Source of the DNA: an uncultured Sangeribacter sp.
Lineage (GTDB): Bacteria > Bacteroidota > Bacteroidia > Bacteroidales > Muribaculaceae
Direction: 5' to 3'
DNA length: 64,000 nucleotides
Assembly: GCA_964499025.1 (NCBI GenBank)
Contig: CAZCJC010000009.1
Coordinates: 3,519-67,518, forward strand
Positions 18,436-54,702 of the stretch are shown here, piece by piece. A program made the translations under genes and the position numbers. The notes beneath the pieces were generated by a model. That model had not been told where the DNA came from, searched no databases, and saw nothing but the letters and a program-made list of their open reading frames with translations. Every line of letters begins with the position of its first letter. Position 1 is the stretch's first letter.

Positions 18436-18632
18436 TTATTACGCGTTCAATTTAAAACGCTATTATTTACAATTATCTGTGTATTCTGTTCACCTACAAT
18501 CTACTTGTTCTTTTTGGTGATTTTTCCATCCTCACATCAGTCGCATAGCCCGCTATGCTCCCTCTTAGAGAATGCAAAATACCTCAAAAATAACTGCTCA
18601 TATAGTATGTTTTTAATATGAACAGCATCTTA
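18436..18632 (-). repeat. Dispersed structured element, divergent copy D (MITE-like)
   Basis: Minus-strand core gagggagcatagcgggctatgcgactga...aaaagaacaagt shared with other copies; imperfect terminal IR; lies between araB stop and its terminator. Confidence 0.7.
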
Positions 18633-18635
18633 AGT

Positions 18636-18674
18636 AAAAAAGACTGATAACTTCTTTAGTTATCGGTCTTTTTT
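18636..18674. terminator. Intrinsic terminator of ara operon
   Basis: aaaaaagactgataac / gttatcggtctttttt. Confidence 0.8.
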
Positions 18675-18675
18675 A

Positions 18676-18707
18676 TTTGCTAAATAGGCGATATATCATT
18701 AATTTTG
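18676..18707 (+). promoter_or_regulatory. Housekeeping promoter for ddl-ileS-lspA
   Basis: TTTG (18676-18679) - 20 nt - TAATTTTG (18700-18707). Confidence 0.7.
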
Positions 18708-18798
18708 CAGTTCAGACTCAGGTTTGTTAAAATTTAATTCTTAAGGTATTGGAGGCAAGGTTGAATTAATTCATACAGCCTCTTATATATATCTGATT

Positions 18799-19992
18799 AT
18801 GAAGACCAATATAGCAGTTTTTTTCGGTGGACGTTCAGTAGAACATGAAATTTCAGTTATTTCTGCGTTGCAAGCTATCAATGCATTTGATAAGGAGAAA
18901 TACAACATAATTCCCGTATATATTTCCAAACAGGGGAGATGGTATACAGGAGACAATCTTCTTGAGATCCGGAATTATCGAGACATGAATTCGTTGGTGA
19001 ATAATGCTGAAGAAGTGTTCATGCGCCCCGAATACGGAGATTATAATCTATATAAAGCCCAAACGGGATTATTCAGCAAAAGAAATCCGATAGTTGCGGA
19101 ACTTCACGCGGTTGTACCGGTTCTTCATGGCACAAATGGAGAGGATGGAATATTCGAAGGTGTACTTGAGACAATTGGAATACCTTATGCCGGTTGTAAT
19201 ACTCTTTCGAGTGCCAATGGAATGGATAAGATAACCATGAAAATGATCCTCAGAGAAAGTGGGATTCCTGTAGTAGATTATGTTTGGTTCACCGATAAGG
19301 AATGGCTATCGAAAAGAGATGCAATCATTTCCAAAGTTGAAGAAAAGCTTTCATATCCGGTGATAGTTAAGCCTGCAAATCTTGGGTCAAGTGTAGGTAT
19401 CGGAAAGGCTTCCAACAGAAGTGAGTTAATAGAAAAAATAGACAATGCAGAGAAGTTTTCCAACAGAATAATTGTCGAACATATGATTGAACAGTTAAAA
19501 GAAATTAACTGCTCAGTGCTTGGAGATTGCGATGAACATCAATCTTCTGTTTGTGAGGAACCGATAAAGACAGGCGATTTTCTTTCGTATGAAGATAAAT
19601 ATATGGGAGGATCTAAAACAACTGCAGGAATGCAAGCAAGTGATAAGAGAATCCCGGCTGACCTTCCGGAAGAGATGAGTGAAAAGATACGTCATCTTGC
19701 CGGCGAAACATTCCGAGTCCTGTCATGTCATGGAGTAAGTCGGATTGATGTAATGATTGATGAGAAAGACAATAAAATATATGTCAACGAAATAAATACC
19801 ATTCCCGGTTCGCTTTCTTTCTATCTTTGGGAGGCATCTGGAATAAGATTTGACCAATTAATGGACAAACTTGTGCAGCTTGCACTTAAGAGAAAGCGTG
19901 CAATTGATAGAAAAACGTTTACTTACGACAGCAATATCTTTGCTCTTGGAGGAGGCGTAAAGGGAGCTAAAGGTGTAAAAGGGGTAAAATAA
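18799..19992 (+). CDS. ddl: D-alanine--D-alanine ligase
   Basis: FGGRSVEHEIS, LHGTNGEDG, VKPANLGSSVG, SYEDKY, SRID, VNEINTIPGS. Confidence 0.93.
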   Translation: MKTNIAVFFGGRSVEHEISVISALQAINAFDKEKYNIIPVYISKQGRWYTGDNLLEIRNYRDMNSLVNNAEEVFMRPEYGDYNLYKAQTGLFSKRNPIVAELHAVVPVLHGTNGEDGIFEGVLETIGIPYAGCNTLSSANGMDKITMKMILRESGIPVVDYVWFTDKEWLSKRDAIISKVEEKLSYPVIVKPANLGSSVGIGKASNRSELIEKIDNAEKFSNRIIVEHMIEQLKEINCSVLGDCDEHQSSVCEEPIKTGDFLSYEDKYMGGSKTTAGMQASDKRIPADLPEEMSEKIRHLAGETFRVLSCHGVSRIDVMIDEKDNKIYVNEINTIPGSLSFYLWEASGIRFDQLMDKLVQLALKRKRAIDRKTFTYDSNIFALGGGVKGAKGVKGVK

Positions 19993-19998
19993 AGTGAA

Positions 19999-22900
19999 TT
20001 GATTATGAGTAAGAATTTCAAGGAATATAGCAACCAATTAAACCTATCCGACATCAATAAGGAGATGTTGGAGCTTTGGGATGCCAATAATCTTTTTGAG
20101 GCCAGTATGAAAGAGAGGGAGGGTTGTCCTACTTTCGTATTTTATGAAGGGCCACCCTCAGCTAACGGAATGCCCGGTATTCATCATGTGATGGCGCGTA
20201 CTATAAAGGATATCATATGTCGCTATAAGACAATGAAGGGCTTTCACGTGAAACGTAAAGCCGGTTGGGATACTCATGGCCTTCCGGTGGAGTTGGGTGT
20301 AGAGAAAACCCTTGGAATTACAAAAGAGGATATCGGAACCAAAATTTCTGTGGATGAATACAATTCAGCCTGTAGAAAAGAGGTGATGAAATATACAAAG
20401 GAATGGACTGACCTAACACACAAGATGGGTTATTGGGTCGATTTGAAGAATCCTTATATCACCTATGACAACAGGTATATCGAGTCTGTGTGGTGGCTGC
20501 TCAAAGAATTGTATAAGAAAGGTTATCTTTACAAAGGTTACACAATTCAGCCGTATTCTCCGGCCGCAGGTACTGGTCTTAGCTCTCATGAGTTAAATCA
20601 GCCGGGTTGTTATAGAGATGTAAAGGATCTCACTGCAACGGCGCTTTTTGATATTAAAGATCCAAAGCCTGAGATGACAGGTTGGGGACGCCCTTGTTTC
20701 CTCGCATGGACAACAACCCCCTGGACATTGCCATCAAATACCGCTTTGTGTGTCGGACCCAAGTTTGAATATGTTGCTCTTCGTACATTCAATCCATATA
20801 ATGGTGAGAAACTCACAGTAGTTATGGCCTCCGATCTTGTAAATTCGTATTTCAAGAAAGAGGGGGAAAATGCTGATTTCAATTCATATAAGGCAGGAGA
20901 TAAGATTATCCCCTATGAAATAGTTGGAAGATATCGAGGAGAAGAACTTGTTGGAATGCATTACAACCAATTGCTTCCTTGGGTAAAGCCGACGGAGAAA
21001 TTGAATGAGTATTCTGCTGAATACGTAAAGAATTATGCAAAAGAGTATCCCAATAAGGTGTTTACTGTAGGGTCAGATTCTTTCGTTGAGATGGAGTCTC
21101 AGGCTTTTCGTGTTATACCGGGTGATTATGTTACGACCGACGATGGTACAGGAATCGTGCATATCGCTCCCACATTTGGAGCCGATGACGCGAAAGTGGC
21201 AAAAGCAGCGGATATCCCTTCTCTATTCATGATAAATAAGAAAGGGGAGACTCGTCCGATGGTTGACCTTCAGGGACGCTTCTATGTAATTGATGAACTT
21301 GCACCGGAGTTTGTAGAAACCTGTGTAAATATTGATCTATATAAGAAATTTGCCGGAGAATATGTGAAAAATGCATATGATCCGCAGTTCTCACCGGAAG
21401 GAAAATATGATGAAGCGGCTGCTACCAAGGCTGAGGACCTTAACGTGAGATTATGTATAGATATGAAACAGTCTGGGAAGGTGTTCCGGACTGAAAAGCA
21501 TGTGCATAATTATCCTCATTGTTGGAGAACAGATAAGCCTGTGATATATTATCCACTTGACAGTTGGTTTATCCGTACTCCGGAAGCACGCGAACGGTTA
21601 ATTGAACTCAACGATACTATCAAATGGAAACCGGCAGCTACCGGAACCGGTAGATTTGGTAAATGGCTTGAAAATCTTCAAGATTGGAACCTCTCCAGAA
21701 GTCGTTATTGGGGTACGCCTCTTCCTATATGGCGTACAGAAGATGGAAAAGAGGAGTATTGTATAGGATCTTATGAAGAACTCTGTCAAAAAATAGATGA
21801 GGCAGTAAATGCCGGGCTTATGAATTCGAATCCCTTTACTGATAAGGGTTTCATTCCCGGGTCTTTTACCGCAGAGAATTATGACAGAATTGACATTCAT
21901 CGTCCCTATGTGGATGATATTATTCTTGTTTCTCCATCGGGCAAACCCATGAAACGGGAGACAGACCTTATCGACGTTTGGTTTGATTCCGGGGCTATGC
22001 CATATGCTCAGATCCATTATCCTTTTGAAAACAAGGAATTACTCGATACAAAGGAAGTATATCCTGCTGATTTTATTGCTGAGGGTGTGGATCAAACAAG
22101 AGGATGGTTCTTTACTCTTCATGCAATTGCGGGTATGGTTTTTGACTCAGTTGCATATAAGGCTGTTATTTCAAATGGCCTTGTTCTTGACAAGAATGGA
22201 AATAAAATGTCTAAGCGACTCGGGAATGCGATAGATCCATTTGGAAATATTGAGCGTTTCGGTAGTGATCCTGTAAGGTGGTATATGATTTCCAATTCAT
22301 CACCCTGGGATAATCTCAAATATGATGAGGAGGGTGTTGCAGAAGTTAGCAGAAAACTTTTCTCAACACTTTATAATACCTATAAATTCTTTGCTCTATA
22401 TGCAAATGTAGATGGATTTTCCGGAAATGAGACTCAGGTTCCTTTAAAAAATCGTCCGGAGATCGACAGATGGATACTATCGTTGTTGAACAGTCTTATC
22501 CTGGAAGTTGAGAAAGATCTCGATGATTATGAACCCACGAAAGCTGCGAGGGCGATTGATGAATTTGTGAATGACAATCTCAGCAACTGGTACGTTCGTC
22601 TGAACAGGAAACGTTTCTGGGCAGGAGATATGAATGAGGATAAACTTTCGGCATATCAGACACTCTATACCTGTCTTAAGGTCATAGCCCAGTTAATGGC
22701 TCCGTTTGCCCCATTCTATGCTGATAAACTATATTCTGACTTGGTTGCTCCTACCTTGGATGGGAAGGATTATGAATCGGTTCATCTGTCGGATTTTCCC
22801 AAGGCAGAAAAAGAAACAATTGATAAGGAACTTGAAGATAGAATGGATCTTGCTCAGCGCATCACATCAAGTGTGCTTGCATTACGAAGGAAAGTAAACC

Positions 22901-23574
22901 TGAAGGTGAGACAGCCTCTTCAGACTTTGCTGATTCCCGTCATTGATGATTCTCAAAGAGAAAAAATTAGTGCGATAAAGAATATTATCCTTGATGAGGT
23001 GAATGTAAAGGAGCTTAAGATTGTAGATAATGAGGAAAGCGGGCTTGTGAAGAAAGTTAAAGCAGATTTCAAAAAGCTCGGTCCTCGTTATGGGAAGATA
23101 ATGAAAGCTCTTGGAAAGGCAATAACAGAAATGTCTCAGAAGGATATAGCTGTTTTAGAGAAGGAAGGCCGATTTGAGTTTAAAGAATTACCCGAAACTC
23201 CAGTTGTTACTGTAGAAGATGTTGAAATTATTCCGGAAGATGTGCCCGGATGGCTCGTAAGTAACGAAGGAAATATAACGGTAGCACTCGATGTTACAGT
23301 CACTCCGGAGTTGAAAAACGAAGGAATGGCTCGGGAGTTGATCAATAGAATTCAGAATATTCGGAAATCCTCAAATTTTGAGATAACTGATAAAGTCAAT
23401 GTCGAGCTTTCTGATTCTGAATCAGTAAGAGGTGCGCTGGCTCAATATAAAGATTATATTGCTGCTCAGGTTCTCGCAGATAATATTGCCATTGTAGACA
23501 AGGTCGAAGGTGACAACGTTGTCGAACTCGATATTGACGGAGAAAAGTTATTGGCAAAAGTAACAAGAAAATGA
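19999..23574 (+). CDS. ileS: Isoleucyl-tRNA synthetase, type 2 (likely start ATG at 20005)
   Basis: EGPPSANGMPGIHH (HIGH-like), GWDTHGLPVE, WTTTPWTLP, GTGIVHIAP, KMSKR. Confidence 0.96.
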   Translation: MIMSKNFKEYSNQLNLSDINKEMLELWDANNLFEASMKEREGCPTFVFYEGPPSANGMPGIHHVMARTIKDIICRYKTMKGFHVKRKAGWDTHGLPVELGVEKTLGITKEDIGTKISVDEYNSACRKEVMKYTKEWTDLTHKMGYWVDLKNPYITYDNRYIESVWWLLKELYKKGYLYKGYTIQPYSPAAGTGLSSHELNQPGCYRDVKDLTATALFDIKDPKPEMTGWGRPCFLAWTTTPWTLPSNTALCVGPKFEYVALRTFNPYNGEKLTVVMASDLVNSYFKKEGENADFNSYKAGDKIIPYEIVGRYRGEELVGMHYNQLLPWVKPTEKLNEYSAEYVKNYAKEYPNKVFTVGSDSFVEMESQAFRVIPGDYVTTDDGTGIVHIAPTFGADDAKVAKAADIPSLFMINKKGETRPMVDLQGRFYVIDELAPEFVETCVNIDLYKKFAGEYVKNAYDPQFSPEGKYDEAAATKAEDLNVRLCIDMKQSGKVFRTEKHVHNYPHCWRTDKPVIYYPLDSWFIRTPEARERLIELNDTIKWKPAATGTGRFGKWLENLQDWNLSRSRYWGTPLPIWRTEDGKEEYCIGSYEELCQKIDEAVNAGLMNSNPFTDKGFIPGSFTAENYDRIDIHRPYVDDIILVSPSGKPMKRETDLIDVWFDSGAMPYAQIHYPFENKELLDTKEVYPADFIAEGVDQTRGWFFTLHAIAGMVFDSVAYKAVISNGLVLDKNGNKMSKRLGNAIDPFGNIERFGSDPVRWYMISNSSPWDNLKYDEEGVAEVSRKLFSTLYNTYKFFALYANVDGFSGNETQVPLKNRPEIDRWILSLLNSLILEVEKDLDDYEPTKAARAIDEFVNDNLSNWYVRLNRKRFWAGDMNEDKLSAYQTLYTCLKVIAQLMAPFAPFYADKLYSDLVAPTLDGKDYESVHLSDFPKAEKETIDKELEDRMDLAQRITSSVLALRRKVNLKVRQPLQTLLIPVIDDSQREKISAIKNIILDEVNVKELKIVDNEESGLVKKVKADFKKLGPRYGKIMKALGKAITEMSQKDIAVLEKEGRFEFKELPETPVVTVEDVEIIPEDVPGWLVSNEGNITVALDVTVTPELKNEGMARELINRIQNIRKSSNFEITDKVNVELSDSESVRGALAQYKDYIAAQVLADNIAIVDKVEGDNVVELDIDGEKLLAKVTRK

Positions 23575-24254
23575 ACTTGAATATGGAGGATAAAAATTTG
23601 ACTCCATCTAATGGCAAGTCATCGGGACTTTCATCCGGATGGCTTGCCATTATCATCGCCATTCTGGTGATAATTGCTGACCAGACATTAAAGATATGGA
23701 TAAAGACCCATTATTATCTTGGGGAAGATCATGAGATAACATCATGGTTCCATATCAAGTTTATAGAGAACAATGGCATGGCTTTTGGTCTTGAATTATG
23801 GAGTAAACTTGCTCTTACAATTGGGAGGATCATAGCCGTAATCCTTTTCATATGGTTTATCCTCAAGGTTAGGAATGTTCCGGGTATAAGGCGGGGATTC
23901 ATAATTGCGGTTGCATTGATCACTGCCGGGGCTGCAGGGAATATTTTTGACTGTGTCTTTTATGGTAAGATTTTCAACAACCCGATGCCACCTGAAATAG
24001 CTGTTCTTTTTCCTCCAGAAGGAGGTTATGCGGGATGGTTTGAAGGTAGGGTAGTGGATATGTTATATTTCCCGTTTTTCGACTTTTATTGGCCAGAATG
24101 GATTCCAGTAATAGGTGGGAAATATTATGAATTTTTCGCTTATATCTTCAATATCGCTGATGCTTCTATTTGCGTTGGAGTTGCGATGCTTTTGATATTC
24201 TTTTCTAAAGATGCTTCTTTAGCATTCAGAGCAATCGGTAAAAATAAGGAATGA
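23571..24254 (+). CDS. lspA: Lipoprotein signal peptidase II
   Basis: ADQTLK, ENNGMAFG, GAAGNIFD, VVDM, IFNIADASI; ATGA overlap with ileS. Confidence 0.93.
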   Translation: MNLNMEDKNLTPSNGKSSGLSSGWLAIIIAILVIIADQTLKIWIKTHYYLGEDHEITSWFHIKFIENNGMAFGLELWSKLALTIGRIIAVILFIWFILKVRNVPGIRRGFIIAVALITAGAAGNIFDCVFYGKIFNNPMPPEIAVLFPPEGGYAGWFEGRVVDMLYFPFFDFYWPEWIPVIGGKYYEFFAYIFNIADASICVGVAMLLIFFSKDASLAFRAIGKNKE

Positions 24255-25204: not shown

Positions 25205-25315
25205 AATCTAAATAGCTATTCATATTTAGCACATATATTAATAATTATAAATCATAGAGTCTTAATTTGAACATCTACTAAATACTAATATCGAAACTCT
25301 AAAAAAGTTATTCAA

Positions 25316-25597
25316 TTGGATCTTTCTTCATTGCAACAAATAAAATTTCTTACTCGGAAAGTTGAGATAGTTGATAGAAAAGGAATAGGAAGAATTTTGA
25401 TTCTTCCTATAATCACATTATATGTAGAGAGTAAGAATAACTTTGGATCAACTTACTTCAGATCACCGGTTCGGGTAAAAATTATATCTTATGATGTGGA
25501 GGAATTCTTAGGAGAAGTTCCTCAAGTCACTTATATCGATTACAGTGTTAGAATAATTGATGATGGCGAAAATTTATGGCTTGAACCCATCAATTGA
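25316..25597 (+). CDS. Hypothetical 93-aa ORF (TTG start; uncertain or remnant)
   Basis: ORF track only; no recognisable motif. Confidence 0.3.
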   Translation: MDLSSLQQIKFLTRKVEIVDRKGIGRILILPIITLYVESKNNFGSTYFRSPVRVKIISYDVEEFLGEVPQVTYIDYSVRIIDDGENLWLEPIN

Positions 25598-26063
25598 GAG
25601 GAATATTTATATTAATTGAAGGTATTGGAGTCCAGAATGATTCCGGTGACCAGTGTATATTTATTACCCCTGGTGCGCCATATCTTCCCGAATATGGGTA
25701 AAGTTTCTGGATATAATGGCGACCATTTCTATAATATCTTACAATAAAGGTATCGCTATTTATTCTCCAAACCTTTACATCTCGGCTTCCACGAGTGGCG
25801 TATCTAATCATCTTTTCAAGTTCTCGATTAGGGGAATGGTGATTCTTCCGAATGTTCTGACCCGGTCTATTTACAAAATTATTGTGTTTTTTCTTATGAT
25901 CTTTTGTGGCATGTTGCCGGTGTGGTCTATCATTCCTATGATGATCCCTATTTCTGTCGGTATGCTCTAAGTGACCTCTGTTATTTTTGTGATGGTCAGC
26001 AAATACTTCTCCAGTTCCTGCCAGAGAGAATGCTATTATAATCAAAATTATTATTCTTTTCAT
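25590..26063 (-). CDS. Secreted His/Arg-rich hypothetical protein
   Basis: Signal peptide, about 12 His in residues 23-78, C-terminal PSININIPLN. Confidence 0.7.
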   Translation of the reverse strand: MKRIIILIIIAFSLAGTGEVFADHHKNNRGHLEHTDRNRDHHRNDRPHRQHATKDHKKKHNNFVNRPGQNIRKNHHSPNRELEKMIRYATRGSRDVKVWRINSDTFIVRYYRNGRHYIQKLYPYSGRYGAPGVINIHWSPESFWTPIPSININIPLN

Positions 26064-26177
26064 AATTATTCTGTTTTAATGTTTACTCCGAAGTATACAT
26101 TAATGACCAAAAATTTATGTAAAAGTTTATTTTATGCTGCTAATAAATAAATTTTTAAGGCATAAAGGCATAACAAT

Positions 26178-26254
26178 CATTTACATTTATAGATTAGAGA
26201 CTATTTGGATCATACATTTACATTTATAGATTAGAGACTATTTGGATCATACAT
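26178..26254. repeat. Perfect 37-bp tandem duplication
   Basis: catttacatttatagattagagactatttggatcata x2 plus cat; no spacer. Confidence 0.95.
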
Positions 26255-26265
26255 AAGAATATATT

Positions 26266-27573
26266 TTAAAAAGAGAACGACACAAAAGCACCTACTCTTC
26301 TTGCCCAGGCAGACTGACCGCTGAAATTCAGTCTTCTACCTAAGTTGAATTCAGCTGCGCATGATATTCTTGGAGTCAGATACCAGAAAACATTAGCTGC
26401 AATGTAAAGCCCCTGTTTATAATCATCGGGTTGAACTGCGTATCGGGGTGCATATCGAGTTCCTCCAAAAGTTGCGGATGCAAATATTGAAGGTGTAAAA
26501 TTATACTGTCCGGCAATGTATCCTCCGTAGCATAATGGAGAATATAAATCTCCCGGTTTTAGTGGATTTTCGACTAAGTCATAGGCACCCATCAACCAGT
26601 CGCCACCAAGACTTGCATACCCGTGTCCTGCGTTCATCATTCCATACACCGTAACGGCATGGTGAGGATGAAATACAGTGGAGATTTGAGTACCCCACCC
26701 GATTTTATTATGATTTTTTTCCTGAATTAAATTTCGGTATGGGAGTGAACGCAGAATACCGGAAAGTCGAATATGATTTGATCCCGGCCATGTCCATTGA
26801 AGGAACGCTGCCACATCAGGAATATATTGCTCGACTTTTGCAGTCTTATCAGGAATAATCTCTATCTGATCGGAAGGAGTTTCCACGGAAGCAGCAATGT
26901 AGAAGCCTTTGGGCAAGTTATGGAGCCAACGTATGAGAACCGCTGTTGCACTCATTTTTGCATTTGGACCCGATGCATCCACAGCCGGAGGGAGTGCGGT
27001 CGGATCGCTGAATGTAGAGCTGTCGTAACCGAATGTCCAATCGTTTATTCTTGCATATGCTTTTTTAAGATGAAAATCGCGCGCCTGATATCCATTAAAG
27101 TTAGCTTCAATATAAAGTTGATATTCACCAAATAGTTTATTAGTTCCGATGAGTCTGAAATAGAGAGCTGTTCCGGCTGGTGTGGTTCCAAAATATTTAT
27201 TCCGTAGAGGATTGTTTTGCATAGGGATAAGATAGGGGGCGAAACCCGGGGAAGGGATGGAACCACCCCAGTCAAAATAACCTCTCATCCTCACACATCC
27301 TCCCATTCCCATAGCAAGATTCGAATCTTTCGACAGAAACAGAAAATAAGGAGCTAAAGGATCTTGGAAATGCCGAAACTGATCTTCGTAAAATTTTCGG
27401 ATAAGATTGGACACTGTATCATTGGAGGGTGCATCATTTTTTCCGAAATAAATAATTTTATGCGAATTTATGGATGAATCCAAAAGAATATCTGTCATAT
27501 TTTTTGTTTGAGACAAAGCAATATTAAATGTGACGCTCAATAGGAAAATTATAATAAGCCTAATAATTTTCAT
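26266..27573 (-). CDS. DcaP-like outer-membrane porin
   Basis: Signal peptide, YIEANF...FHLKKAY...WTFGYDSSTFSD, PDVAAFLQW, C-terminal FVSFSF (BAM signal). Confidence 0.75.
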   Translation of the reverse strand: MKIIRLIIIFLLSVTFNIALSQTKNMTDILLDSSINSHKIIYFGKNDAPSNDTVSNLIRKFYEDQFRHFQDPLAPYFLFLSKDSNLAMGMGGCVRMRGYFDWGGSIPSPGFAPYLIPMQNNPLRNKYFGTTPAGTALYFRLIGTNKLFGEYQLYIEANFNGYQARDFHLKKAYARINDWTFGYDSSTFSDPTALPPAVDASGPNAKMSATAVLIRWLHNLPKGFYIAASVETPSDQIEIIPDKTAKVEQYIPDVAAFLQWTWPGSNHIRLSGILRSLPYRNLIQEKNHNKIGWGTQISTVFHPHHAVTVYGMMNAGHGYASLGGDWLMGAYDLVENPLKPGDLYSPLCYGGYIAGQYNFTPSIFASATFGGTRYAPRYAVQPDDYKQGLYIAANVFWYLTPRISCAAEFNLGRRLNFSGQSAWARRVGAFVSFSF

Positions 27574-27610
27574 CGGGTAAATGGTTAATTAAAATGATTT
27601 TCTATATGTC

Positions 27611-27641: not shown

Positions 27642-27646
27642 CACAA

Positions 27647-33556: not shown

Positions 33557-34672
33557 ATGATAAAATTCCTTGATTTAAAAGCGGTTAACGACTCTTATGG
33601 AAAAGATGTCAATGCCGCTGTAAACAGGGTTATCTCTTCCGGCTGGTATCTGCTTGGGGATGAACTCAAAAATTTTGAAAAGGAATATTCCGACTATATT
33701 GGCGTGCCCTATACAATAGGGTGCGCCAATGGTTTGGATGCTCTTACTCTTATTTTAAAGGGTTATATTGAGCTGGGGGTATTTAATCCGGGAGATGAAA
33801 TAATTGTTCCCTCCAACACCTATATTGCTTCCATATTGGCCATATCTGAAAATGGATTGGTTCCTGTATTGGTTGAACCTGATATTGATACGCTCCAGAT
33901 AGCTCCCGAGAAAATTGAAGAGAGGATAACTTCGAGGACAAAAGGTATCATGCTTGTGCACCTTTATGGAAAATGTGCGTATACTCTAATGATAAAGGAT
34001 ATATGTGAAAAGTATAATCTAAAGTTGATAGAGGATAATGCACAGGCCCATGGTTGCGAGTATAAAGGTAGAAAGACAGGTTCTTTGGGAGACGCAGCAG
34101 GACATAGCTTTTATCCAGGAAAAAATTTAGGATGTCTTGGAGACGGAGGTGCAATAACTACCTCCGACCGGCTTCTTGCAGAAACAGTAAGGAGTCTTGC
34201 CAATTATGGTTCCCCTAAAAAATATATATTTGATTATAAAGGCAGAAATTCTAGATTGGATGAAATACAGGCAGCAGTATTAAGGACCAAACTTTCACGT
34301 TTGGAGGGAGATAATGAAAAGCGTAGATACGTTGCAAAGAGATATTCTGAAGAAATCATAACCCCTCATATAATTATCCCCCAGGGATTAAAAAAACCGG
34401 ATAAAGATAATGTTTATCATATCTTCCCTATATTATGTAGTGAGCGAGATCGTCTTCAGAAATATCTTCATGATTCAGGAATACAGACCCTGATTCATTA
34501 TCCAATTCCTCCTCATTTACAAAAATGTTATAAGTCAGGAGAATTGAATCTTCCCGACTCCCTAACTGTTACTGAACTCATTCATAACAGAGAACTTTCT
34601 TTACCGATTTCACCGGTAATGGATGAGAGAGAAGTAGATTACATAATTAAAAAATTGAATTCGTTTAAGTAG
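33557..34672 (+). CDS. fdtB: DegT/DnrJ/EryC1/StrS sugar aminotransferase (FdtB/QdtB-like)
   Basis: [49 protein letters not shown]. Confidence 0.85.
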
Positions 34673-34851
34673 TTGGTAAAAATTAATGAACAAATAAAAC
34701 GAAGTTATTTTTGAGCAGATTTTACTGCGGAAAGAGGGAGCAGACTTTCGTATGCTACTGAATGGCAATACAAAAGGTGCCGAAAAAGAACCAGTTTTAT
34801 TGTCCAAGATTATCAACTACAATATATCAATTAATTTAAAAAAACTACTTA
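34666..34851 (+). repeat. Dispersed structured element copy E (186 bp, TA-flanked, TIRs)
   Basis: taagtagttggtaaaaattaat ... attaatttaaaaaaactactta; core gagggagcagac-tttc-gtatgctactga. Confidence 0.85.
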
Positions 34852-35520: not shown

Positions 35521-35706
35521 TAAGTAGTTGTTAAAAATTAATTGATATATTGTAGTTGATAATCTTGGACAATAAAAACTGGCTCTTTTTGGTATCTTTT
35601 ACCTTGTCATTCAGTCACATCCGAAAGGTAGCTCCCTCTTTTCGGAGCAAAATCCACTCAAAAATAACTTCGTTTTGTACGTTCATTAATTTTTGCCAAC
35701 TACTTA
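35521..35706 (-). repeat. Dispersed structured element copy F (186 bp), inverted relative to E
   Basis: Reverse complement begins taagtagttggcaaaaattaatgaac; 43 bp identical to E. Confidence 0.85.
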
Positions 35707-38250: not shown

Positions 38251-38928
38251 ATGATATTAACATCGGAATATTTGCAGGAACGCTTTTGTTTTTGGATTGA
38301 TAAAATTGCAGAAGCCGGTATATGGGATAGATCAAAATTCTTACCAGTGGAATTGATAATGAGAAAGAAGTCTAAAAGATTTGCCGGAAAATTTGTGAGA
38401 AAGTATAAATTAGGAGTAGGTGGAGAACGCTTCAAAGATCATATCATCATATATCGGAAGTCAACGGATATATCACCCAAGGAAATAGATGAAATTTTGG
38501 TCCATGAGATGATTCATTTATATATCTGTCAGAATAATTTGAAGGATACGTCTGCCCATGGGAAATTGTTTAAATATTATATGAATGAGATAAATAGGGC
38601 ATTTGGTGATCTTATTAACATATCATTACGATTATCCGGTACAAATGAGAAAGGATCAGGAAGTAAAAATCATTTGTTATTAGTATTATGGTTTGACAAT
38701 AATGAAATTTATTGCTGCGATATAAATCCTAAAAAGATTAATTACTTCCGCAGATTTTTGGATGAGAATCGCTTTAGAAAGAATCTCATGAAATTCGGAT
38801 GGTATACTTCTAACAACACCTATTTTGACTCCTTTGTCACCTGTTATAGGAGCCTCCACGGGAAGAAAATGTCAGCAATTCAATTGGACCAGTTATTTGA
38901 AGAGTGCAAAATAACCCCGATATTATAA
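38251..38928 (+). CDS. SprT-like zinc metalloprotease domain protein
   Basis: ILVHEMIH (HExxH) followed by HGKLF. Confidence 0.8.
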   Translation: MILTSEYLQERFCFWIDKIAEAGIWDRSKFLPVELIMRKKSKRFAGKFVRKYKLGVGGERFKDHIIIYRKSTDISPKEIDEILVHEMIHLYICQNNLKDTSAHGKLFKYYMNEINRAFGDLINISLRLSGTNEKGSGSKNHLLLVLWFDNNEIYCCDINPKKINYFRRFLDENRFRKNLMKFGWYTSNNTYFDSFVTCYRSLHGKKMSAIQLDQLFEECKITPIL

Positions 38929-39085: not shown

Positions 39086-39269
39086 TAAGTAGCTCGCTGA
39101 AATAACTGAATATATAAAACGCCGTGATTTTGAATTAATTTTGGTTTCGGATGAAGGAGCATAGCGGCCTATGTAGCTGAAGTCGAAGTCAAAAGTAATA
39201 CAAAAGAACAAGTTTTAGCATTCATTATTCTCATTTTATTTTCATTAATTAATTTTTGTGAGCCACTTA
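39086..39269 (+). repeat. Dispersed structured element copy A (184 bp)
   Basis: taagtagctcgctgaaat ... atttttgtgagccactta; core gaaggagcatag-cggc-ctatgtagctga. Confidence 0.9.
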
Positions 39270-41268: not shown

Positions 41269-41951
41269 AATTGCGAGCGATCGGTTTATTATTTTTGATG
41301 ATTGGCTTAGCAAGTCTGTCGGCAATGGGACAGACCCATTATTCATCAAACGTAGCAGTTGGAGTGAAGGGTGGAGTGGATCTCTCAAGAGTAATGTTCA
41401 CCCCAAGTATTAAACAAAGTTTTTTATTGGGAGCAAATGCCGGACTTACCTTTAGATATATTGAAGAAAATCACTTCGGTTTGATAGCAGAAGTCAATTT
41501 TGAACAACGAGGATGGAAGGAGGATTTTGAAGAATATCCATTCGAGTATTCGCGAACAGTTGACTACATTCAGATTCCTCTTTTAGCACACATATATTTC
41601 GGTGGGAGAGGACGTTTCTTTTTAAATCTTGGCCCGGAAATAGGCTTTAGGATAGGAGAATCAACAAAAGCAAATTTCGACTATAACAATATAGCCTCAA
41701 TACCTGATTTCCCATCATCAATAAGAAATACCTACCAATATCAGATGGCCGCTGAAAATAAGGTGGATTTTGGTATATCTGCAGGTCTCGGCGGAGAATA
41801 CAATATTACAAAAAGAAATTCGCTTTATCTTGAGGCAAGAGTATATTATGGGTTGGGGAACGTCCTTAAATCCGGTCGTACCGAACACTTCAGAGGTTCA
41901 AATTCTTTATCCATCATGGCAAGTATTGGATATTGGTTTAGAATTAAATAA
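41265..41951 (+). CDS. Outer-membrane beta-barrel (porin family, PorT-like)
   Basis: GVKGG, EVNFEQRGW, YIQIPLL, LEARVYYGL, terminal YWFRIK. Confidence 0.8.
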   Translation: MKLRAIGLLFLMIGLASLSAMGQTHYSSNVAVGVKGGVDLSRVMFTPSIKQSFLLGANAGLTFRYIEENHFGLIAEVNFEQRGWKEDFEEYPFEYSRTVDYIQIPLLAHIYFGGRGRFFLNLGPEIGFRIGESTKANFDYNNIASIPDFPSSIRNTYQYQMAAENKVDFGISAGLGGEYNITKRNSLYLEARVYYGLGNVLKSGRTEHFRGSNSLSIMASIGYWFRIK

Positions 41952-41982
41952 CTAATGGATATCTCCATTGATCCCTAATAAT

Positions 41983-42021
41983 AAAAGTCCGCATATCAGA
42001 TTGGTTGATACGCGGACTTTT
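41983..42021. terminator. Bidirectional intrinsic terminator between porin gene and cdsA
   Basis: aaaagtccgc...gcggactttt stem with A/T tails. Confidence 0.75.
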
Positions 42022-42025
42022 GTTT

Positions 42026-42215
42026 TAAGTTGCCTAAACTAATTTACGAAAGCTAAAAAGCGTGTAAAATAAATTCTTTTATTAATCTTTACAGATCTTT
42101 TGGGCGCATTTTACTCTTCATCGATGTCAACCAAAAGGTTTCCGCCTATCCAAATGAAAAAAGTCAGCTTCAAAATATCTCGAAAAAATTAACAAAAATT
42201 AGTTTATGCGACTTC
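42026..42215 (-). repeat. Dispersed structured element, subfamily 2, copy G (190 bp)
   Basis: TIR aagttgcctaaactaattt / aaattagtttatgcgactt; colinear with 54513-54702. Confidence 0.85.
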
Positions 42216-42224
42216 TATATAATA

Positions 42225-43063: not shown

Positions 43064-43246
43064 TAAGTAGCTCGCAGAAATTAATGAATAGATAAAACGC
43101 AGTGATTTTGAGTTGATTTCGGTTTTGGCTGAAGAAGCATAGCGGGCTATGTGACTGAATGCAAGACTGGAATTAATATAAAAGAACAAGTTTTAGCATT
43201 CATTAAGCCATTTTATATACATTAATTAATTTTTGTGAGCTACTTA
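43064..43246 (+). repeat. Dispersed structured element copy B (183 bp)
   Basis: taagtagctcgcagaaattaat ... attaatttttgtgagctactta; core gaagaagcatag-cggg-ctatgtgactga. Confidence 0.9.
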
Positions 43247-45610: not shown

Positions 45611-45619
45611 TGTTAGAAA

Positions 45620-48991: not shown

Positions 48992-49034
48992 ATAATGTCA
49001 ATTCAAGTATTTTACCTGTTTATGATACGTTTAA

Positions 49035-50210
49035 TTACTTTGCTGGCTGAGCCTGCTCGGCCGGGGTAGTCTGTTGAATCGGGGCTGTTTCTGATTTCGG
49101 AGTTATAATGAGACCATCTTTAGCTGTGATACCAACACCTTCAGTTACGATTACATCTCCGGTCTTAAGACCTGAGGTCACGATAAAGTTCTTGCCATCA
49201 TTTTCTGATGCAACAGTAATCGGGGTAGAATGAAGTTTTGCAGAATCACCGACAACATATACAAAGCGCATATCCTGAATTTCAAAAGTTGCGCTTTGTG
49301 GAATCTGAATAGTTGAATTATGTTCTGTCGGAATAAGTACCCGACCTGTATTACCACTTCTCAACATACCATCAGGATTCGGGAAATCAGCCTTTGTCTG
49401 GGCACTACCGGTGGCTGAGCTGATAACTCCGGAGATAGAGATGATTTTTCCCTTGTGTGGATAGATTGAGCCGTCAGCAAGGCGTAAGGTTACCTCCGGC
49501 ATAGCAGCTATAGCCTCATTAATTGTGCGTTTCCCTCCATCTGTAAATTCAAGAAGTGTCTTTTCATTAATTGAGAATACGGCTTGCATAGTACTGTTGT
49601 CAGAAAGCATCGTCAATAAAGTAGATGGACTAACAAGAGTACCCTCCTTAAACGGTATTTCACCCACATACCCCGACACCGGAGCAGTTACAGTGGAATA
49701 TGACAAATTCTTGCGGGCCGAGATCAACCCTGCCTGTGCTTGCTGAAGCTGAGCCTTGGCAGCATTGAGGGCATCTACAGAAGTCTGGTATGCCGGTGCA
49801 CTGATAATATTTTTATCAAGAAGAATCTTATTATTGTTTGCATTTGTCTGGGCTGTGTTGACATTGGCCTGAGCAACAGCTACAGCAGCCTGTGCCTGAT
49901 CCACGGCAGCCTGGAGCTGAACCTGATCAATTGTAAATAGCACTTGACCTTTGCGCACATATTGTCCGTCATCAACATGAACCTTAGTAAGAAAGCCAGT
50001 GATCTGTGGGCGAATCTCAACGTCGTTTGTTCCTTCAAGTGTTGCGGGGATTGCAGTTTCAAGTGATGCATCCGATTCGCTGATCGTCATTACTGTTAAT
50101 TCAGGTGCGTTCCCCATTTGCTGTTGTTGATTGTTTCCTTTGCATGAAGGAAGAGCCATCGCTACTGTTACTCCCAATAACGATAATGCACTCAGTTTTC
50201 TAATTCTCAT
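49035..50210 (-). CDS. RND efflux periplasmic adaptor lipoprotein (AcrA family)
   Basis: Lipobox LPSC, VEIRPQITG, GQVLFTID, VTAPVSG, GLKTGDVIVTEG. Confidence 0.93.
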   Translation of the reverse strand: MRIRKLSALSLLGVTVAMALPSCKGNNQQQQMGNAPELTVMTISESDASLETAIPATLEGTNDVEIRPQITGFLTKVHVDDGQYVRKGQVLFTIDQVQLQAAVDQAQAAVAVAQANVNTAQTNANNNKILLDKNIISAPAYQTSVDALNAAKAQLQQAQAGLISARKNLSYSTVTAPVSGYVGEIPFKEGTLVSPSTLLTMLSDNSTMQAVFSINEKTLLEFTDGGKRTINEAIAAMPEVTLRLADGSIYPHKGKIISISGVISSATGSAQTKADFPNPDGMLRSGNTGRVLIPTEHNSTIQIPQSATFEIQDMRFVYVVGDSAKLHSTPITVASENDGKNFIVTSGLKTGDVIVTEGVGITAKDGLIITPKSETAPIQQTTPAEQAQPAK

Positions 50211-50295
50211 TTTAAATTGTGTTTAGTAGATATTTTACCTGTTTATCGGGAATTACGGAGAAGGGTCGAGGGTCAAAACTATAATACCCTTCATA

Positions 50296-50478
50296 TAAGC
50301 AGCTCACAAAAATAAATTAATGTAAATAAAATGATATTAATGAAAGCTAAACCTGGTTCTTTTGTGTTACTTTTGGCCCTGACTTAGTCACATAGTCTAC
50401 TATGCTCCTTCAGCCGAAACCAAAATCAATTCAAAATCACGGCGTTTTATCTATTCATTAATTTCTGCGAGCTACTTA
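50296..50478 (-). repeat. Dispersed structured element copy C (183 bp), inverted relative to A and B
   Basis: First 37 nt of reverse complement identical to B; core gaaggagcatag-taga-ctatgtgact. Confidence 0.9.
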
Positions 50479-50617
50479 CATAGTAATCCACAATACAAAA
50501 TTAACAAAATTTATTCAGAAATAACCAATAAGAGTACAATAAAGGGAAAATATGACCAATATTGCGCCAATCTATAAAACTGATTCCAGGTTATTAGTTT
50601 TATTAAGTTTTACTATT

Positions 50618-50693
50618 GAAGTCCTCTAAACTAATATACGAAAGTTAAAAATCGTCTTCGAAAATCTTAATAAAAATTAGTTTAGACAGCTTC
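50618..50693. repeat. Internally deleted subfamily-2 element H (76 bp; ends only)
   Basis: gaagtcctctaaactaatatacgaaagttaaaaatcgtcttc ... aaaaattagtttagacagcttc, flanked by att/att. Confidence 0.8.
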
Positions 50694-50703
50694 ATTCTGA
50701 AAC

Positions 50704-50745
50704 AATAAATCGCTGCAGTTGAAATTTCTACTGCAGCGATTTATT
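50704..50745. terminator. Intrinsic terminator downstream of ftsH
   Basis: aataaatcgctgcagt / actgcagcgatttatt perfect IR. Confidence 0.85.
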
Positions 50746-50764
50746 ATAATGTTAGTATTACTGT

Positions 50765-52819
50765 TTATTTGGTAAAAGGAGGGGGAGTACCGGGATCCGA
50801 ATCATCCTGTGTGATTTCGAAACCATCTGCGGGAATAAATTCAGAGTCATCATTATTATCAGGATTAAGTTTCTCCTTTTCCTCCTCTTTCTTGGAAAGC
50901 TCAATTATCTCATCCGTGCGGGATTTCCACTGACGTTTACCCAGAATTTTCTCAACATCATCATGATAAATAACCTCTCGTTCAACAAGAAGGTCACGAA
51001 TCTGATTATGTTGTGTAGCATATTTTCTGAGAATATCTTTTGCTCTTTCATATTGCTCGTTAACAATTCTCATCACCTCGGCATCAATGATCTTTGCTGT
51101 GTCATCTGAATACGGCTTGGTAAAGCCCATATCCTGACCTGTAGAATCGTTATAATTCAGATTAGGGAGCTTATCACTCATACCGTAGACAAGAACAAGG
51201 GATCTTGCAATTTTTGTGCATTTTTCCAAGTCATCACTTGCTCCTGTGCCAACTTGCCCCATGAACACCTCTTCTGCAGCTCTTCCGGCAAGAAGGCCGC
51301 ACATTGTGTCTAATAACGCCTGAGTCGGAATAATCTGTCTCTCTTCGGGTGCATACCAGGCAGCTCCCAAAGCACGCCCACGAGGCACAATCGTAACTTT
51401 AACGAGAGGATTGCCATATTGAAGCATCCATGTTATTGTGGCGTGGCCTGCTTCGTGCGTTGCGATGGCATGTTTCTCCTCATCTGTAATAATACGAGAT
51501 TTCTTCTCCATTCCTCCAACTATCCTGTCAATTGCGGCCATGAAGTCATCCCAGTCTACTGCCTGTTTATTATTTCTCGCCGCTATAAGTGCTGCCTCAT
51601 TACATACGTTTGCAATATCTGCTCCGGAGAATCCTTGAGTCTGACGAGCAAGCTGCTCAACATCCAGACGGCTATTTACCTTGATGTTTCTCAGATGAAC
51701 ATTGAAAATCTCAACACGATCGGTCAATTCGGGAAGATCCACATAAATCTGGCGGTCAAAACGACCCGGGCGTAACAGAGCTTTGTCAAGCATGTCGGCG
51801 CGGTTAGTCGCCGCAAGACATATGACACCATTGTTTGATTGGAAACCATCCATCTCAGTCAGCATCTGATTGAGAGTGTTTTCACGCTCATCATTTGAAC
51901 CCATGTTAGGATTCTTACCGCGGGCTCTACCCACCGCGTCAATCTCATCAATAAATACGATACATGGAGCTTTCTCCTTGGCCTGTTTGAAAAGATCCCT
52001 TACGCGGGCGGCTCCCACTCCGACAAACATCTCAACAAAATCGGAACCAGACATAGAAAGGAAGGGGACATTTGCTTCTCCGGCCACCGCCTTTGCAAGA
52101 AGGGTCTTACCCGTTCCGGGAGGGCCTACCAATAATGCTCCACGCGGTATCTTTGCACCAAGTTCAGTATATTTTTGTGGATTTTTCAGGAATTCTACGA
52201 TTTCCTCAATCTCCACTTTGGCCTCAGCAAGCCCGGCTACATCTTTAAATGTGACATTTGTGCCATTATTTTTATCAAAAACCATGGCTTTGGATTTTCC
52301 GACATTGAAAATACCCCCACCGCCACCGGGACCACTGCTCATCCTCTTTGACATGTAGACCATGAAGATCACAATAAGGATGATTGGGCCAAATGACCAG
52401 AATATTTTCATAAAGTCACTTCCTTTCTGGTAATTGACTTTAATCTCTGCCTTACCTTCACTCGAAAGAGTCGTGTTCCAAGCATCTATCTTTTCCTGAA
52501 TTTTATCCGATGAGGGGATGGTTGTCTTGATCTTTTTCTCTCCTGAAAAGGAATTGTCCATATCGAACTTCAGCTTTTTTGCACCCTGATCGGTAAGAAT
52601 ACCCTCAGCTATCCCATTTTCAGAAAAGACAATGATTTTGCTGATGTCACCGGCCACAGCTGTTTTTTCAAAATCTGTCCAGTTGACATCCTTGGTCTGT
52701 GAACTGTCCTGAAAATAGTAGAGAGCCAGAATTGAAAGTCCGATCAATACATACATCCAGTACATATTGAAAAGTGGACGTTTGTTTCGATTTCCTTGTT
52801 TTTTATTAGATGGAAACAT
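50765..52819 (-). CDS. ftsH: ATP-dependent zinc metalloprotease FtsH
   Basis: [27 protein letters not shown]. Confidence 0.97.
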
Positions 52820-52863
52820 TATTTATTAGGCTTATGTTTTATGGAAAATATCTGTATTTTTTA

Positions 52864-53226
52864 TCAATCCAAATCTGGAACCTTCAGGAAGTCTGCGTCG
52901 CTCCATAGGTCTTCAAGATTGTAGAATTCCCTTACCTCAGGCATAAACACATGAATCATCAGATTTCCGTAATCCAGAACTATCCATTGTGAGTTCTTAT
53001 AGCCATCGTAATTATAGGGTTTGAGATTAAGTTTCTCCCGCAATTCCTCTCGGATATTATCAGCAATTGCTGCCACCTGTGAAGTTGATCGGCCTTGACA
53101 GATAATAAAATTGAAAGCAGGCGCACTTTCAATCTTTTCGAGATCAAGGACAGTGATTTGTTTACCTTTTATATTTTGAATTGCTTCGATTGCAAGCGAA
53201 ACAGGTTCGGATAAATTTCTATTCAT
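52864..53226 (-). CDS. rsfS: Ribosomal silencing factor RsfS
   Basis: KGKQITVLD, WIVLDYG, HVF..REFYNLEDLW. Confidence 0.93.
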   Translation of the reverse strand: MNRNLSEPVSLAIEAIQNIKGKQITVLDLEKIESAPAFNFIICQGRSTSQVAAIADNIREELREKLNLKPYNYDGYKNSQWIVLDYGNLMIHVFMPEVREFYNLEDLWSDADFLKVPDLD

Positions 53227-53317
53227 AACTAATTATTAACAAATAATATGCCAATTCAGATTAATGAAATTTGCATTTGGGGCACGAATTTAACAATTAT
53301 TATTTATAAATCCGTTG

Positions 53318-53854
53318 TTAATCCTCTTTATCGGTTAATTTTTTTGTAAAAACATTCATACCTATTGACTTATTTCCAGATATAAGCCAATCAGGCAGAG
53401 TCCCTCTGAGACTGTACCCCGCATTCTTGAAAAGAATAGTACTAATGAGATTTGTCTCAGCTATTTTTGCACCCAGCTGAACAAGATTTAGCAATTTGAA
53501 GGCATATGATTCAAGAAGCTTTAGTGATCTTTTTGCATATCCGTTATTTCTCTCGCTCTTCATGATATATATCCCGACAAGAGCTCTTCTATGTTGAGCC
53601 GAAATCTCATAAAGATCAATCGCTCCAATCTGTCGTGATGAGTCTTTGTTTTCTATTATAAGCCTGAGTTGGCCGGAAGAGAATGGGTTGGAGTCGTAGG
53701 TCAAAGCATATTGCTGCATATTTTCTTTCGAGTAAGGTGCCAACAATGAATTTTCAATCCATTGTGAGGAGTCGGCCTCAATCAGCGACATAAAAGAAGC
53801 ATCTTCAGGCTCAACCGGCCTTAATCTCAATCTATCATCCTCAAGAAATATCAT
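53318..53854 (-). CDS. GNAT (RimJ/RimL-like) N-acetyltransferase
   Basis: [21 protein letters not shown]...RNNGYA. Confidence 0.85.
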
Positions 53855-54483
53855 AACTTGTCATAAAATGTATCCGAGAAAAGCATTCTGTTCTGTATTG
53901 ATCTTCCGAGGGTGAGTTCATCGGCATATTCCAATTCGTTTCCGATACTGAGTCCTCTTGCAAGCATAGTAATCTTCACCGGGAGATGTGAGAGCTTTCT
54001 ATATATATAGAAATTTGTAGTGTCACCCTCCATAGTCGGACTTAGAGCAAGGATCACTTCTTGAACCTGATCATTCTCGACCCTTTCCACCAGACTTTCT
54101 ATTTCAAGATCGGTTGGGCTAACACCATCAAGAGGTGAGATCAAACCACCCAGAACATGATATAGACCTTTATGTTCATGTGTTGACTCAATGGTGATGA
54201 CATCCTTTACGTTTTCAACCACGCATACTGTCTCTTTATCTCTTCTCGGATCGGAACATATCGGACAAACTTCATTCTCACTTATATTATGGCAGTGAGA
54301 ACAATACCTCACGTTCTCTCTCATTTCAATGATTGAATTTCCCAGACTTAATGCCACTTCCTTATCTTGACGCAGCAGGTGTAACGCTAATCGCAATGCT
54401 GTTTTACTTCCGATTCCCGGGAGCTTTGAAAGCTCTGACACGGCATTATCAAGCAATCTTGAATTAAAACTTTGTTCTATCAT
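53851..54483 (-). CDS. recR: Recombination mediator RecR
   Basis: [13 protein letters not shown]4 zinc finger CSHCH...[19 protein letters not shown]. Confidence 0.96.
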
Positions 54484-54512
54484 GAACTAACCATTCAGTT
54501 ATTTGACCCAAT

Positions 54513-54702
54513 GAAGTTGTCTACACTAATTTACGAAAGTTAAAAATCGTCTTCAAAAAATCTTTTATTAACCTTTCCGGATCTTTTGGGGTGCTTTTTC
54601 CCTTTTCATCGGTGCCAACCGAGAGGTTGCCACCTCTTCAAATTAAATATCATCTCCAAAATATCTCGAATATGTTAATAAAAAATTAGTTTAGACAACT
54701 TC
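54513..54702 (-). repeat. Dispersed structured element, subfamily 2, copy I (190 bp)
   Basis: 20-bp TIR gaagttgtctacactaattt / aaattagtttagacaacttc (1 mismatch), flanked by aat/aat. Confidence 0.88.

Follow-up and report, generated by a model that had tools for sequence, protein, structure and literature searches.

Small mobile elements with a strand-specific fold lie between housekeeping genes of an uncultured Muribaculaceae bacterium

The stretch of DNA analysed here (the window; 64,000 nucleotides of contig CAZCJC010000009.1 from an uncultured Sangeribacter sp.) has a G+C content of 40%, and the open reading frames (ORFs) scanned in it all have housekeeping functions. They include genes for pyruvate:ferredoxin oxidoreductase, arabinose genes, and genes for Ddl, IleRS, LspA, a DegT-family aminotransferase, CdsA, LpxA, an RND pump, FtsH, RsfS, RecR, RuvA and SprA. 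Dispersed between these genes are nine copies of a small palindromic element, which make up approximately 2.5% of the window sequence. The elements are mobile and non-autonomous, and they carry a fold that belongs to one specific strand. They are likely to be MITEs (miniature transposable elements with inverted repeats).

Repeat finding and direct reading of the sequence bore out the number and the positions of the copies, which an earlier note on this DNA had given along with a length of 183-197 bp for the full copies. The window was also searched with an nhmmer profile made from the copies and with a covariance model (R1) that was built from the inner 88 nt of subfamily 1 only. Along the window, the copies are as follows.

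~18436-18632, minus strand: copy D, an old and diverged relative within subfamily 1 (nhmmer 109 bits, covariance model 74.5 bits); the inner arms and the apex (18537-18564) are intact, the outermost ends decayed.
34666-34851, plus strand: copy E, subfamily 1, E-type, beginning TA-AGTAGTTGGT...; apex 34734-34761 (nhmmer and R1).
35521-35706, minus strand: copy F, subfamily 1, E-type; apex 35611-35638 with the stem GCUACC/GGAUGU (nhmmer and R1).
39086-39269, plus strand: copy A, subfamily 1, A-type, TA-AGTAGCTCGC...GTGAGCCACT-TA, between the SprT-like and LysM genes; apex 39153-39180 (nhmmer 149 bits, R1 87 bits; 91.8% identical to the A-type consensus).
42026-42220, minus strand: copy G, subfamily 2 (196 bits with the subfamily 2 profile); its apex, at 42118-42151, is degraded.
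43064-43246, plus strand: copy B, subfamily 1, A-type, its left end 15 nt from the cdsA start codon; apex 43131-43158 (nhmmer and R1).
50296-50478, minus strand: copy C, subfamily 1, A-type, upstream of the RND-pump operon; apex 50384-50411 with the loop UAGA (nhmmer and R1; 92.4% identical to the consensus).
50618-50700, minus strand: copy H, derived from subfamily 2 by loss of the interior, with both ends kept; 3-bp flanking duplication ATT.
54513-54705, minus strand: copy I, subfamily 2, terminal inverted repeat GAAGTTGTCTAAACTAATTT, 3-bp flanking duplication AAT; apex 54606-54639, which reads UUU-GA-A-GA, a 10-bp stem with the loop UCUC, then GA-U-GA.

Subfamily 1 thus consists of six copies (A, B, C, E, F and the decayed D), which the nhmmer profile detected with E-values of 1e-32 to 1e-46, far beyond chance. 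The other three (G, I and the internally deleted H) form subfamily 2. Neither the nhmmer profile nor the covariance model with its filters off detected a tenth copy in the window. The elements are non-coding: the longest ORF within any copy has 34 amino acids (aa) and is not conserved, and no ORF is common to the copies. They are bounded by terminal inverted repeats of 25-35 bp, and the two ends of each copy match each other, as had been read earlier. In subfamily 1, the TA at each terminus belongs to the duplicated target, and the element proper is AGTAG...CTACT. The end patterns are AGTAGYTSGY... and GAAGTTGTCTAAAC.... Window copies are 90-92.5% identical to their subfamily consensus, apart from copy D, which is only 49-53% identical to the A-type and E-type consensus sequences. 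The earlier description of all copies as intergenic holds in general but not strictly for copy E: the DegT-family aminotransferase gene (33557-34672) ends in a stop codon that is the first TAA of this copy. Likewise, the orientation that had been listed for copies G, I and H does not stand, since their structured strand is the minus strand.

Mobility is evident from insertions of one element into another. Five nested insertions were found in metagenome contigs (loci outside the window carry L numbers: L018/L052, L023/L040, L013, L026 and L041), each with an exact TA duplication. In L018/L052, an E-type copy lies inside the left arm of an A-type copy, and the junction reads AATGAA-TA-[AGTAG...CTACT]-TA-GATAAAACG, while an intact A-type arm reads AATGAATAGATAAAACG. 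Comparison of the nested with the intact arm therefore makes the pre-insertion sequence with its single TA visible and gives a duplication of exactly 2 bp. TA was present at 32 of the 32 distinct subfamily 1 insertion sites, which lie in AT-rich spacers between tightly packed housekeeping genes and have no longer consensus. Subfamily 2 copies are flanked by 3-bp repeats that lie outside their inverted repeats (AAT/AAT in copy I and ATT/ATT in copy H).

Empty sites were found in a syntenic relative, L060, which has the same gene order (FdtA, DegT, DUF4250, CYTH, DUF5686, LysM, OMP, CdsA, LpxA, RND pump) and is element-free. The elements are absent from the syntenic relatives L060/L061 and L062/L063. 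The spacers that hold copies E, F, G and B compare as follows, in a comparison between lineages (CdsA ~64% identical) and not between strains.

DegT-DUF4250 spacer (copy E): 2 nt in L060, 192 nt in the window.
CYTH-DUF5686 spacer (copy F): 64 nt in L060, 246 nt in the window.
OMP-CdsA spacer (copy G): 12 nt in L060, 273 nt in the window.
CdsA-LpxA spacer (copy B): 138 nt in L060, 362 nt in the window.

Among the metagenome copies, some reach 98-99.5% identity to the subfamily consensus and lie at unrelated loci. This points to recent activity; the window's own copies, being less similar to the consensus, are older. The TA-duplicating nests, the empty L060 spacers and the near-identical copies at unrelated loci show that the elements are mobile. 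Because the copies have no conserved ORF and the window has no transposase, they are also non-autonomous, in agreement with the earlier note, which had proposed non-autonomous mobile elements.

We analysed the fold in an alignment of 31 distinct full copies. The whole element is an imperfect palindrome whose consensus structure is a rod of 50 pairs, with 95.9% of cells paired. Double-sided changes occur in 27 of these pairs, compared to a mean of 10 in shuffled alignments (0 of 500 shuffles reach 27) and 8-11 in slid controls. In the inner helices 5-7, 13 of 19 pairs have double changes, and the covariation thus extends beyond the terminal repeats. Helix 1 (columns 1-24 with 169-193) is 96.3% paired and covaries end to end, with C-G/U-A at 8:186 and G-C/C-G at 10:184. 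Direct reading agrees with the earlier observation that the flanking stems covary and the loops vary.

The two strands do not fold equally well. Mean minimum free energy (MFE) is -56.6 kcal/mol forward versus -44.7 kcal/mol reverse, and the forward strand folds better in 29 of the 31 copies, or in 31 of 31 with DNA parameters. As RNA, copy B has an MFE of -61.9 kcal/mol (z -8.2) on the plus strand and -35.9 (z -3.8) on the opposite strand; the diverged copy D has -52.8 forward versus -30.6 kcal/mol reverse. Among paired cells, G-U (110, ~7% of paired cells) far outnumbers A-C (12). Departures from the subfamily consensus run from Watson-Crick to G-U in 35 cases and to A-C in 10, and the non-Watson-Crick pairs in the two subfamily consensus sequences are all G-U (6/6), none A-C. 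The fold therefore belongs to one specific strand, and the earlier reading that G-U wobbles and tandem G-A pairs occur on one strand only is upheld.

At its tip, the rod carries a conserved module of 28 nt, which on the folding strand reads 5'-GA-RG-GA, a 6-bp stem with a 4-nt loop and its stem half, and GA-CU-GA-3'. It has two tandem G·A/A·G pairs, with two Watson-Crick pairs between them (G·U in E-type) and a hairpin cap. Conservation of the four GA dinucleotides is 80-96% across 50 distinct modules, with no conversion to Watson-Crick, and the apical stem pair is G-C in ~24 modules, C-G in ~17 and U-A in ~9, with the loop free. Stem variants are GCAUAG/CUAUGY, GCAUAC/GUAUGC, GAAUAU/AUAUUC, GUUUAG/CUAAAC, AUGAUG/CAUCAU and GCUACC/GGAUGU. 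On the opposite strand, the GA positions are C·U/U·C mismatches. Unchanging mismatches beside covarying stems are the hallmark of a selected structural motif and not of a decaying palindrome. In subfamily 2, the apex has one pair between the tandem G·A pairs and a stem of 10 bp.

This core is not confined to one kind of element. R1 detected subfamily 2 copy I at full length on the minus strand (35.1 bits, E = 6.5e-5) and gave 14.6 bits only on the degraded copy G, and the subfamily 2 profile weakly matches copy F in reverse orientation. The detection of copy I and the weak match to copy F show that the centres of subfamilies 1 and 2 are homologous, as the earlier note had put it. Beyond the two subfamilies, the apex occurs in at least three other element types, whose arms and ends are unrelated, which extends the earlier view of one covarying core across differing ends. 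Cases outside the two subfamilies include the following.

L012/L019/L021 type: ends AGTAAGTTTGAAAAATTAGCTAAT, apex shared.
L010/L058/L047 type: ends GAGCCCATCTCATAAA..., apex shared.
Single apex cases: L012:3491 and L058:343.

A more G+C-rich repeat type that starts GAGCCCATCTCATAAATTTGAGAGCC occurs at L058:250-720, L010:7120-7400 and L047:3480-3760. Its apex has U·U/U·U between the tandem G·A pairs (GAUUGA...GAUUGA), and L058 has two copies of it in head-to-head arrangement. One inner module is thus common to several end types and to two duplication sizes.

Derivatives of the elements are also present. Internal deletions include copy H in subfamily 2 and, in subfamily 1, L054 and L012:3383-3420, which consists of two terminal repeats only (38 bp); the interiors were lost by hairpin deletion. 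Other derivatives are truncated copies and solo ends. In addition, two chimeras are joined at the core: L051 (330-640) combines a left half from subfamily 1 with a right half of the L012 type, and in L021 (1-240) the halves are the other way round, so that the pair looks reciprocal. The chimeras suggest recombination between unlike elements and possibly chromosomal rearrangements.

Outside the window, we found 52 module matches in 41 other loci. The degenerate left-end pattern is present at 7 places in 185,579 species genomes, all of them Muribaculaceae-type metagenome-assembled genomes (MAGs), including Sangeribacter and bank-vole 'Bacteroides sp.' MAGs. It is also present in 51 metagenome contigs, ~40 of which come from one assembly. 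Contig L055, which carries copies E and F, is from the window's own organism (99.1% identity over 1125 nt). Viral contigs contained no match to the terminal-repeat pattern, and the one core-pattern match there lies in coding sequence and is due to chance; a blastn search of plasmid and phage collections revealed no similar DNA. The nearest database relatives of the window CdsA are 62-68% identical, with a maximum of 68%, and several of the lower-ranked matches (55-62% identity) are named Muribaculaceae by source. This suggests that the host is an uncultured, undescribed lineage of the Muribaculaceae.

No transposase was found among the ORFs scanned in the window (Pfam on non-nested ORFs of at least 100 aa), as the earlier note had stated. 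Across all loci, a fuzzy terminal-repeat scan returned solo or truncated ends only, and an all-against-all ORF comparison yielded no multicopy ORF. At L003:4890-5290, an IS982-family transposase gene with an internal stop is represented by its C-terminal third, which directly adjoins a 26-nt terminal repeat of subfamily 1. As no second terminal repeat follows downstream, we rejected this fragment as a partner; it probably reflects a truncation or an assembly junction, or is a neighbour by chance. An ORF in L042 that runs into a solo terminal repeat has no database relative.

The family also has no match among named ones in the collections that we searched, in line with the earlier note, which had not recognised it. 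Rfam 15, whose families include Bacteroides/Bacteroidales motifs and ribozymes, gave no match on any copy (gathering threshold over the whole window; E<=5 over 34000-55500), and Rfam had no match at E<=1 on four loci with other element types. Weak matches to a trpB non-coding RNA motif at 41925-42077 on both strands (27.7-29.1 bits versus a gathering threshold of 59, E 2-3.7) were dismissed as chance; they take in the OMP gene's end and the left end of copy G. None of the papers searched has either the core 15-mer or a 16-nt end sequence in it, 9-mer matches were unrelated, and a literature search for Muribaculaceae repeats returned nothing. HEARO was set aside for want of an Rfam match, and the attC, retron and 6S-like readings were rejected on architecture. 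An inverton was rejected given the dispersal of the copies at >32 unrelated sites, with target duplication and nesting, and the lack of a recombinase gene nearby; in L055, copies E and F are oriented as in the window. A search for sequencing runs returned none with the window or with two related loci. In one metatranscriptome, an E-type copy was represented by just one 151-nt contig at depth 2, too little to be informative.

A few other features of the window stand beside the repeats. The SprT-like gene (38251-38928), flanked by the DUF5686 and LysM genes and immediately upstream of copy A, has just a 107-nt spacer in its place in L060 and was therefore either gained here or lost in L060. A perfect 37-bp tandem duplication (CATTTACATTTATAGATTAGAGACTATTTGGATCATA x2) at 26178-26251 lies in the spacer between two minus-strand ORFs (25590-26063 and 26266-27573), neither of which is Pfam-matched. 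Perfect G+C-containing hairpins followed by T-rich sequence are found at 50708-50745 (AATCGCTGCAGT...ACTGCAGCGATTT, downstream of the ftsH stop codon) and at 5944-5990 (AAATTGGAGTTGC...GCAACTCCAATTT). These two look like ordinary intrinsic terminators and are unrelated to the repeat family.

Bacterial MITEs such as Correia/NEMIS, RUP, ERIC and RPE are described as elements of ~100-200 bp with terminal inverted repeats, target-site duplication and 5'-TA-3' termini, whose transcripts form long stem-loops (PMC2229807; PMC2649163). The elements found here are likewise small, non-coding and multicopy, with terminal inverted repeats, target duplication and, at the level of lineages, empty orthologous sites. 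The family looks undescribed, while its kind, TA-duplicating MITEs such as Correia and RUP, is well known. Like our elements, the Correia elements of Neisseria (CREE/NEMIS) are non-coding, with a length of ~100-160 bp, terminal inverted repeats of ~25 bp, TA duplication and many intergenic copies. To our knowledge, no autonomous partner has been firmly identified for them either. They also have a conserved core between the repeats, and the long hairpins that their transcripts form can be bound or cleaved by RNase III (PMC2649163; PMC2229807). Conversely, there is no sequence similarity, and the host phylum here is Bacteroidota. The Correia core has an IHF site, with promoter halves at the ends, whereas here the core is formed by a covarying hairpin that has marked strand polarity and contains two tandem G·A pairs that do not vary, and this core is shared by several end types and two duplication sizes.

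Other known repeats are similar in part. RUP of Streptococcus pneumoniae and Nezha (Stowaway-like) are small, insert at TA, have terminal inverted repeats and nest into mobile elements, and mobilisation in trans by an IS630-family transposase has been proposed for RUP and IS630-derived MITEs (PMC2229807). RUP terminal repeats match IS630-Spn1, whereas a partner was not found here. ERIC/IRU and enterobacterial RU are imperfect palindromes of 100-170 bp in intergenic transcribed regions and form long RNA stem-loops (PMC2229807). ERIC differs in having 7-bp terminal repeats and little recent mobility, in contrast to the long repeats, nesting and near-identical copies seen here. Folding that depends on orientation is a further likeness to ERIC and RU. 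REPIN/RAYT and integron attC sites also conserve structure over sequence, use mismatches for strand selectivity and occur in many intergenic copies. However, these lack target duplication and long terminal inverted repeats and need an HUH transposase or an integrase, neither of which was found here; the R/L boxes of attC and the short hairpins of REP type are absent from our elements.

We consider it likely that the elements are real bacterial MITEs that carry a strand-specific, selected fold, are moved in trans and need this fold in cis. A DDE transposase supplied in trans would move them. Because of the strict TA duplication, this enzyme would most likely be IS630/Tc1-mariner-like for subfamily 1, an assignment to the IS630 group for which the TA duplication is the single indication. 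With its 3-bp duplications, subfamily 2 does not fit the IS630/Tc1-mariner group, and the enzyme that moves it would be a different or variant one. The fold may be under selection since the element needs it in cis to propagate, and it would be read single-stranded, as folded DNA or as a transcript. Such a cis role in mobilisation is the one that we favour, with low confidence, over a benefit to the host. Relative to co-directional neighbouring genes, orientation is random (13 copies co-oriented and 12 anti-oriented), no promoter motif is conserved among the copies, one module is common to different ends and duplication sizes, and old copies decay. In a selfish and decaying repeat, the features that stay conserved are most simply those that the element needs to propagate. 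Our confidence is low because the transposase type that we propose works on duplex DNA. A more specific proposal is that the apex is a dedicated strand-specific recognition element, exchanged among MITE families, and that the elements are mobilised or controlled via a folded single-stranded DNA or RNA intermediate bound by the transposase or a host protein. We regard this as doubtful, and we know of no such mode described for bacterial MITEs.

Several points weigh against a selected, cis-acting fold on elements moved in trans. The weak joint is that IS630/Tc1-type transposases act on double-stranded DNA, and a strand-specific fold has no place in their textbook mechanism. An autonomous element with matching ends was not found in the 63 loci (~330 kb), which also contain no IS630-like gene. 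The sole contig from the same organism, L055, carries both E and F and so provides no empty site at strain level. Many of the G-U pairs were inherited from the subfamily founders, so that the counts are not independent and the strand-bias statistics are inflated by shared ancestry. Covariation in the terminal repeats is expected if both ends co-evolve with one transposase, and template-switch correction in quasi-palindromes can mimic compensatory change without selection. It could even be that the fold has no function and is a by-product of such co-evolution, of template-switch or gene-conversion repair and of founder inheritance. The fixed subfamily differences among the G-U pairs fit this, as do the exchange of sequence between copies seen in the chimeras and the internal deletions, which show that the palindrome is mutationally active. 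Yet template-switch repair should yield Watson-Crick pairs, whereas the G·A positions stay purine-purine in 80-96% of the modules, and they are kept across element types with unrelated arms while adjacent pairs covary. Departures from the consensus also favour G-U over A-C, as do the consensus sequences themselves. We therefore consider a functionless fold unlikely.

A stronger competitor is that the rod and its G·A apex act as host RNA, in the form of a processing, stability or insulating hairpin in operon mRNAs that is bound by RNase III or another protein and kept by host selection. This is possible, and nearly as likely as a cis role in mobilisation; it may also hold as a side effect in any case. 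Every copy would put a long hairpin into the neighbouring polycistronic mRNAs, where it could be a substrate for a double-strand RNase, as Correia and ERIC elements are. Copies lie within compact operons, in many cases with just 5-20 nt between them and a start or stop codon, and must therefore be transcribed through. In RNA, G-U pairs, at the share of paired cells given above, are near-neutral, and tandem sheared G·A pairs are a classic type of platform on which proteins bind RNA. Host-level selection would explain the upkeep of the fold, as proposed for Correia/NEMIS and ERIC, and the binding and cleavage of MITE hairpins by RNase III has precedent (PMC2649163; PMC2229807). On the other hand, random orientation means that in half of the copies the host transcript carries the poorly folding strand with its C·U and A·C mismatches. 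Window copies are decaying (D, G and H, with the others 90-92% identical to the consensus), and L060 manages without elements at the same sites. We find it very unlikely that the elements are instead of a single-strand-DNA type (REP/REPIN-RAYT or IS200/IS605 PATE), with an HUH tyrosine transposase that recognises the folded top strand. The strand specificity under DNA parameters would suit such elements, and the subfamily 1 ends, TAA-GTAG...CTAC-TTA, recall the GT[AG]G at the head of REP sequences. In principle, what looks like a TA duplication could combine one TA of the target with another borne by the element. However, instead of two subterminal hairpins on the same strand, the elements have long, symmetric inverted repeats at their ends, and no individual arm is self-complementary in the manner of a REP hairpin. 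Moreover, the AAT and ATT repeats outside the subfamily 2 inverted repeats are true duplications, as are those of TA in subfamily 1, the ORFs scanned in the window include no Y1/HUH gene, and neither HEARO nor any other Rfam family matched. Of the three roles that the earlier note had suggested for the core, the least supported is that of a trans-acting RNA, given the lack of any conserved promoter motif. We hold it to be highly improbable that the copies are genes of a multicopy trans-acting small RNA like FopS/GibS in Bacteroides. One strand does have a conserved structure, and the E-type has a perfect Bacteroidota -7 box (TATTTTTG, forward-strand positions 41-48). This box is not conserved, reading TGATTTTG in the A-type, TATTTCGG in the L004-type and CTATCGCG in the L003-type, and each change is compensated on the other arm, so that pairing is the constraint and not a promoter; we rejected an internal promoter on the same grounds. 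There is no terminator, and TA duplication and nesting show transposition. FopS consists of a single-stranded 5' part and a terminator hairpin (PMC11697453), an architecture different from the one seen here, which led us to reject FopS/GibS as relatives; FopS is also in Rfam, where our elements have no match.

The Muribaculaceae are dominant in the rodent gut and mostly uncultured, and their mobile DNA is barely described. Here, MITE-like elements are wedged between essential genes, among them cdsA, lpxA, ftsH, recR, ruvA and ddl, and their copies break metagenome assemblies. Recombination at the core makes it probable that the family influences operon transcripts as well as rearrangements of the genome in these bacteria. 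The pattern at the apex, with fixed purine-purine pairs, covarying adjacent stems and G-U over A-C, is unusually clear for a MITE, and from comparison of the copies it would be clean evidence of a selfish DNA repeat that is read single-stranded. The family is worth noting for this strand-specific apex signal and for its abundance in a poorly known gut family.

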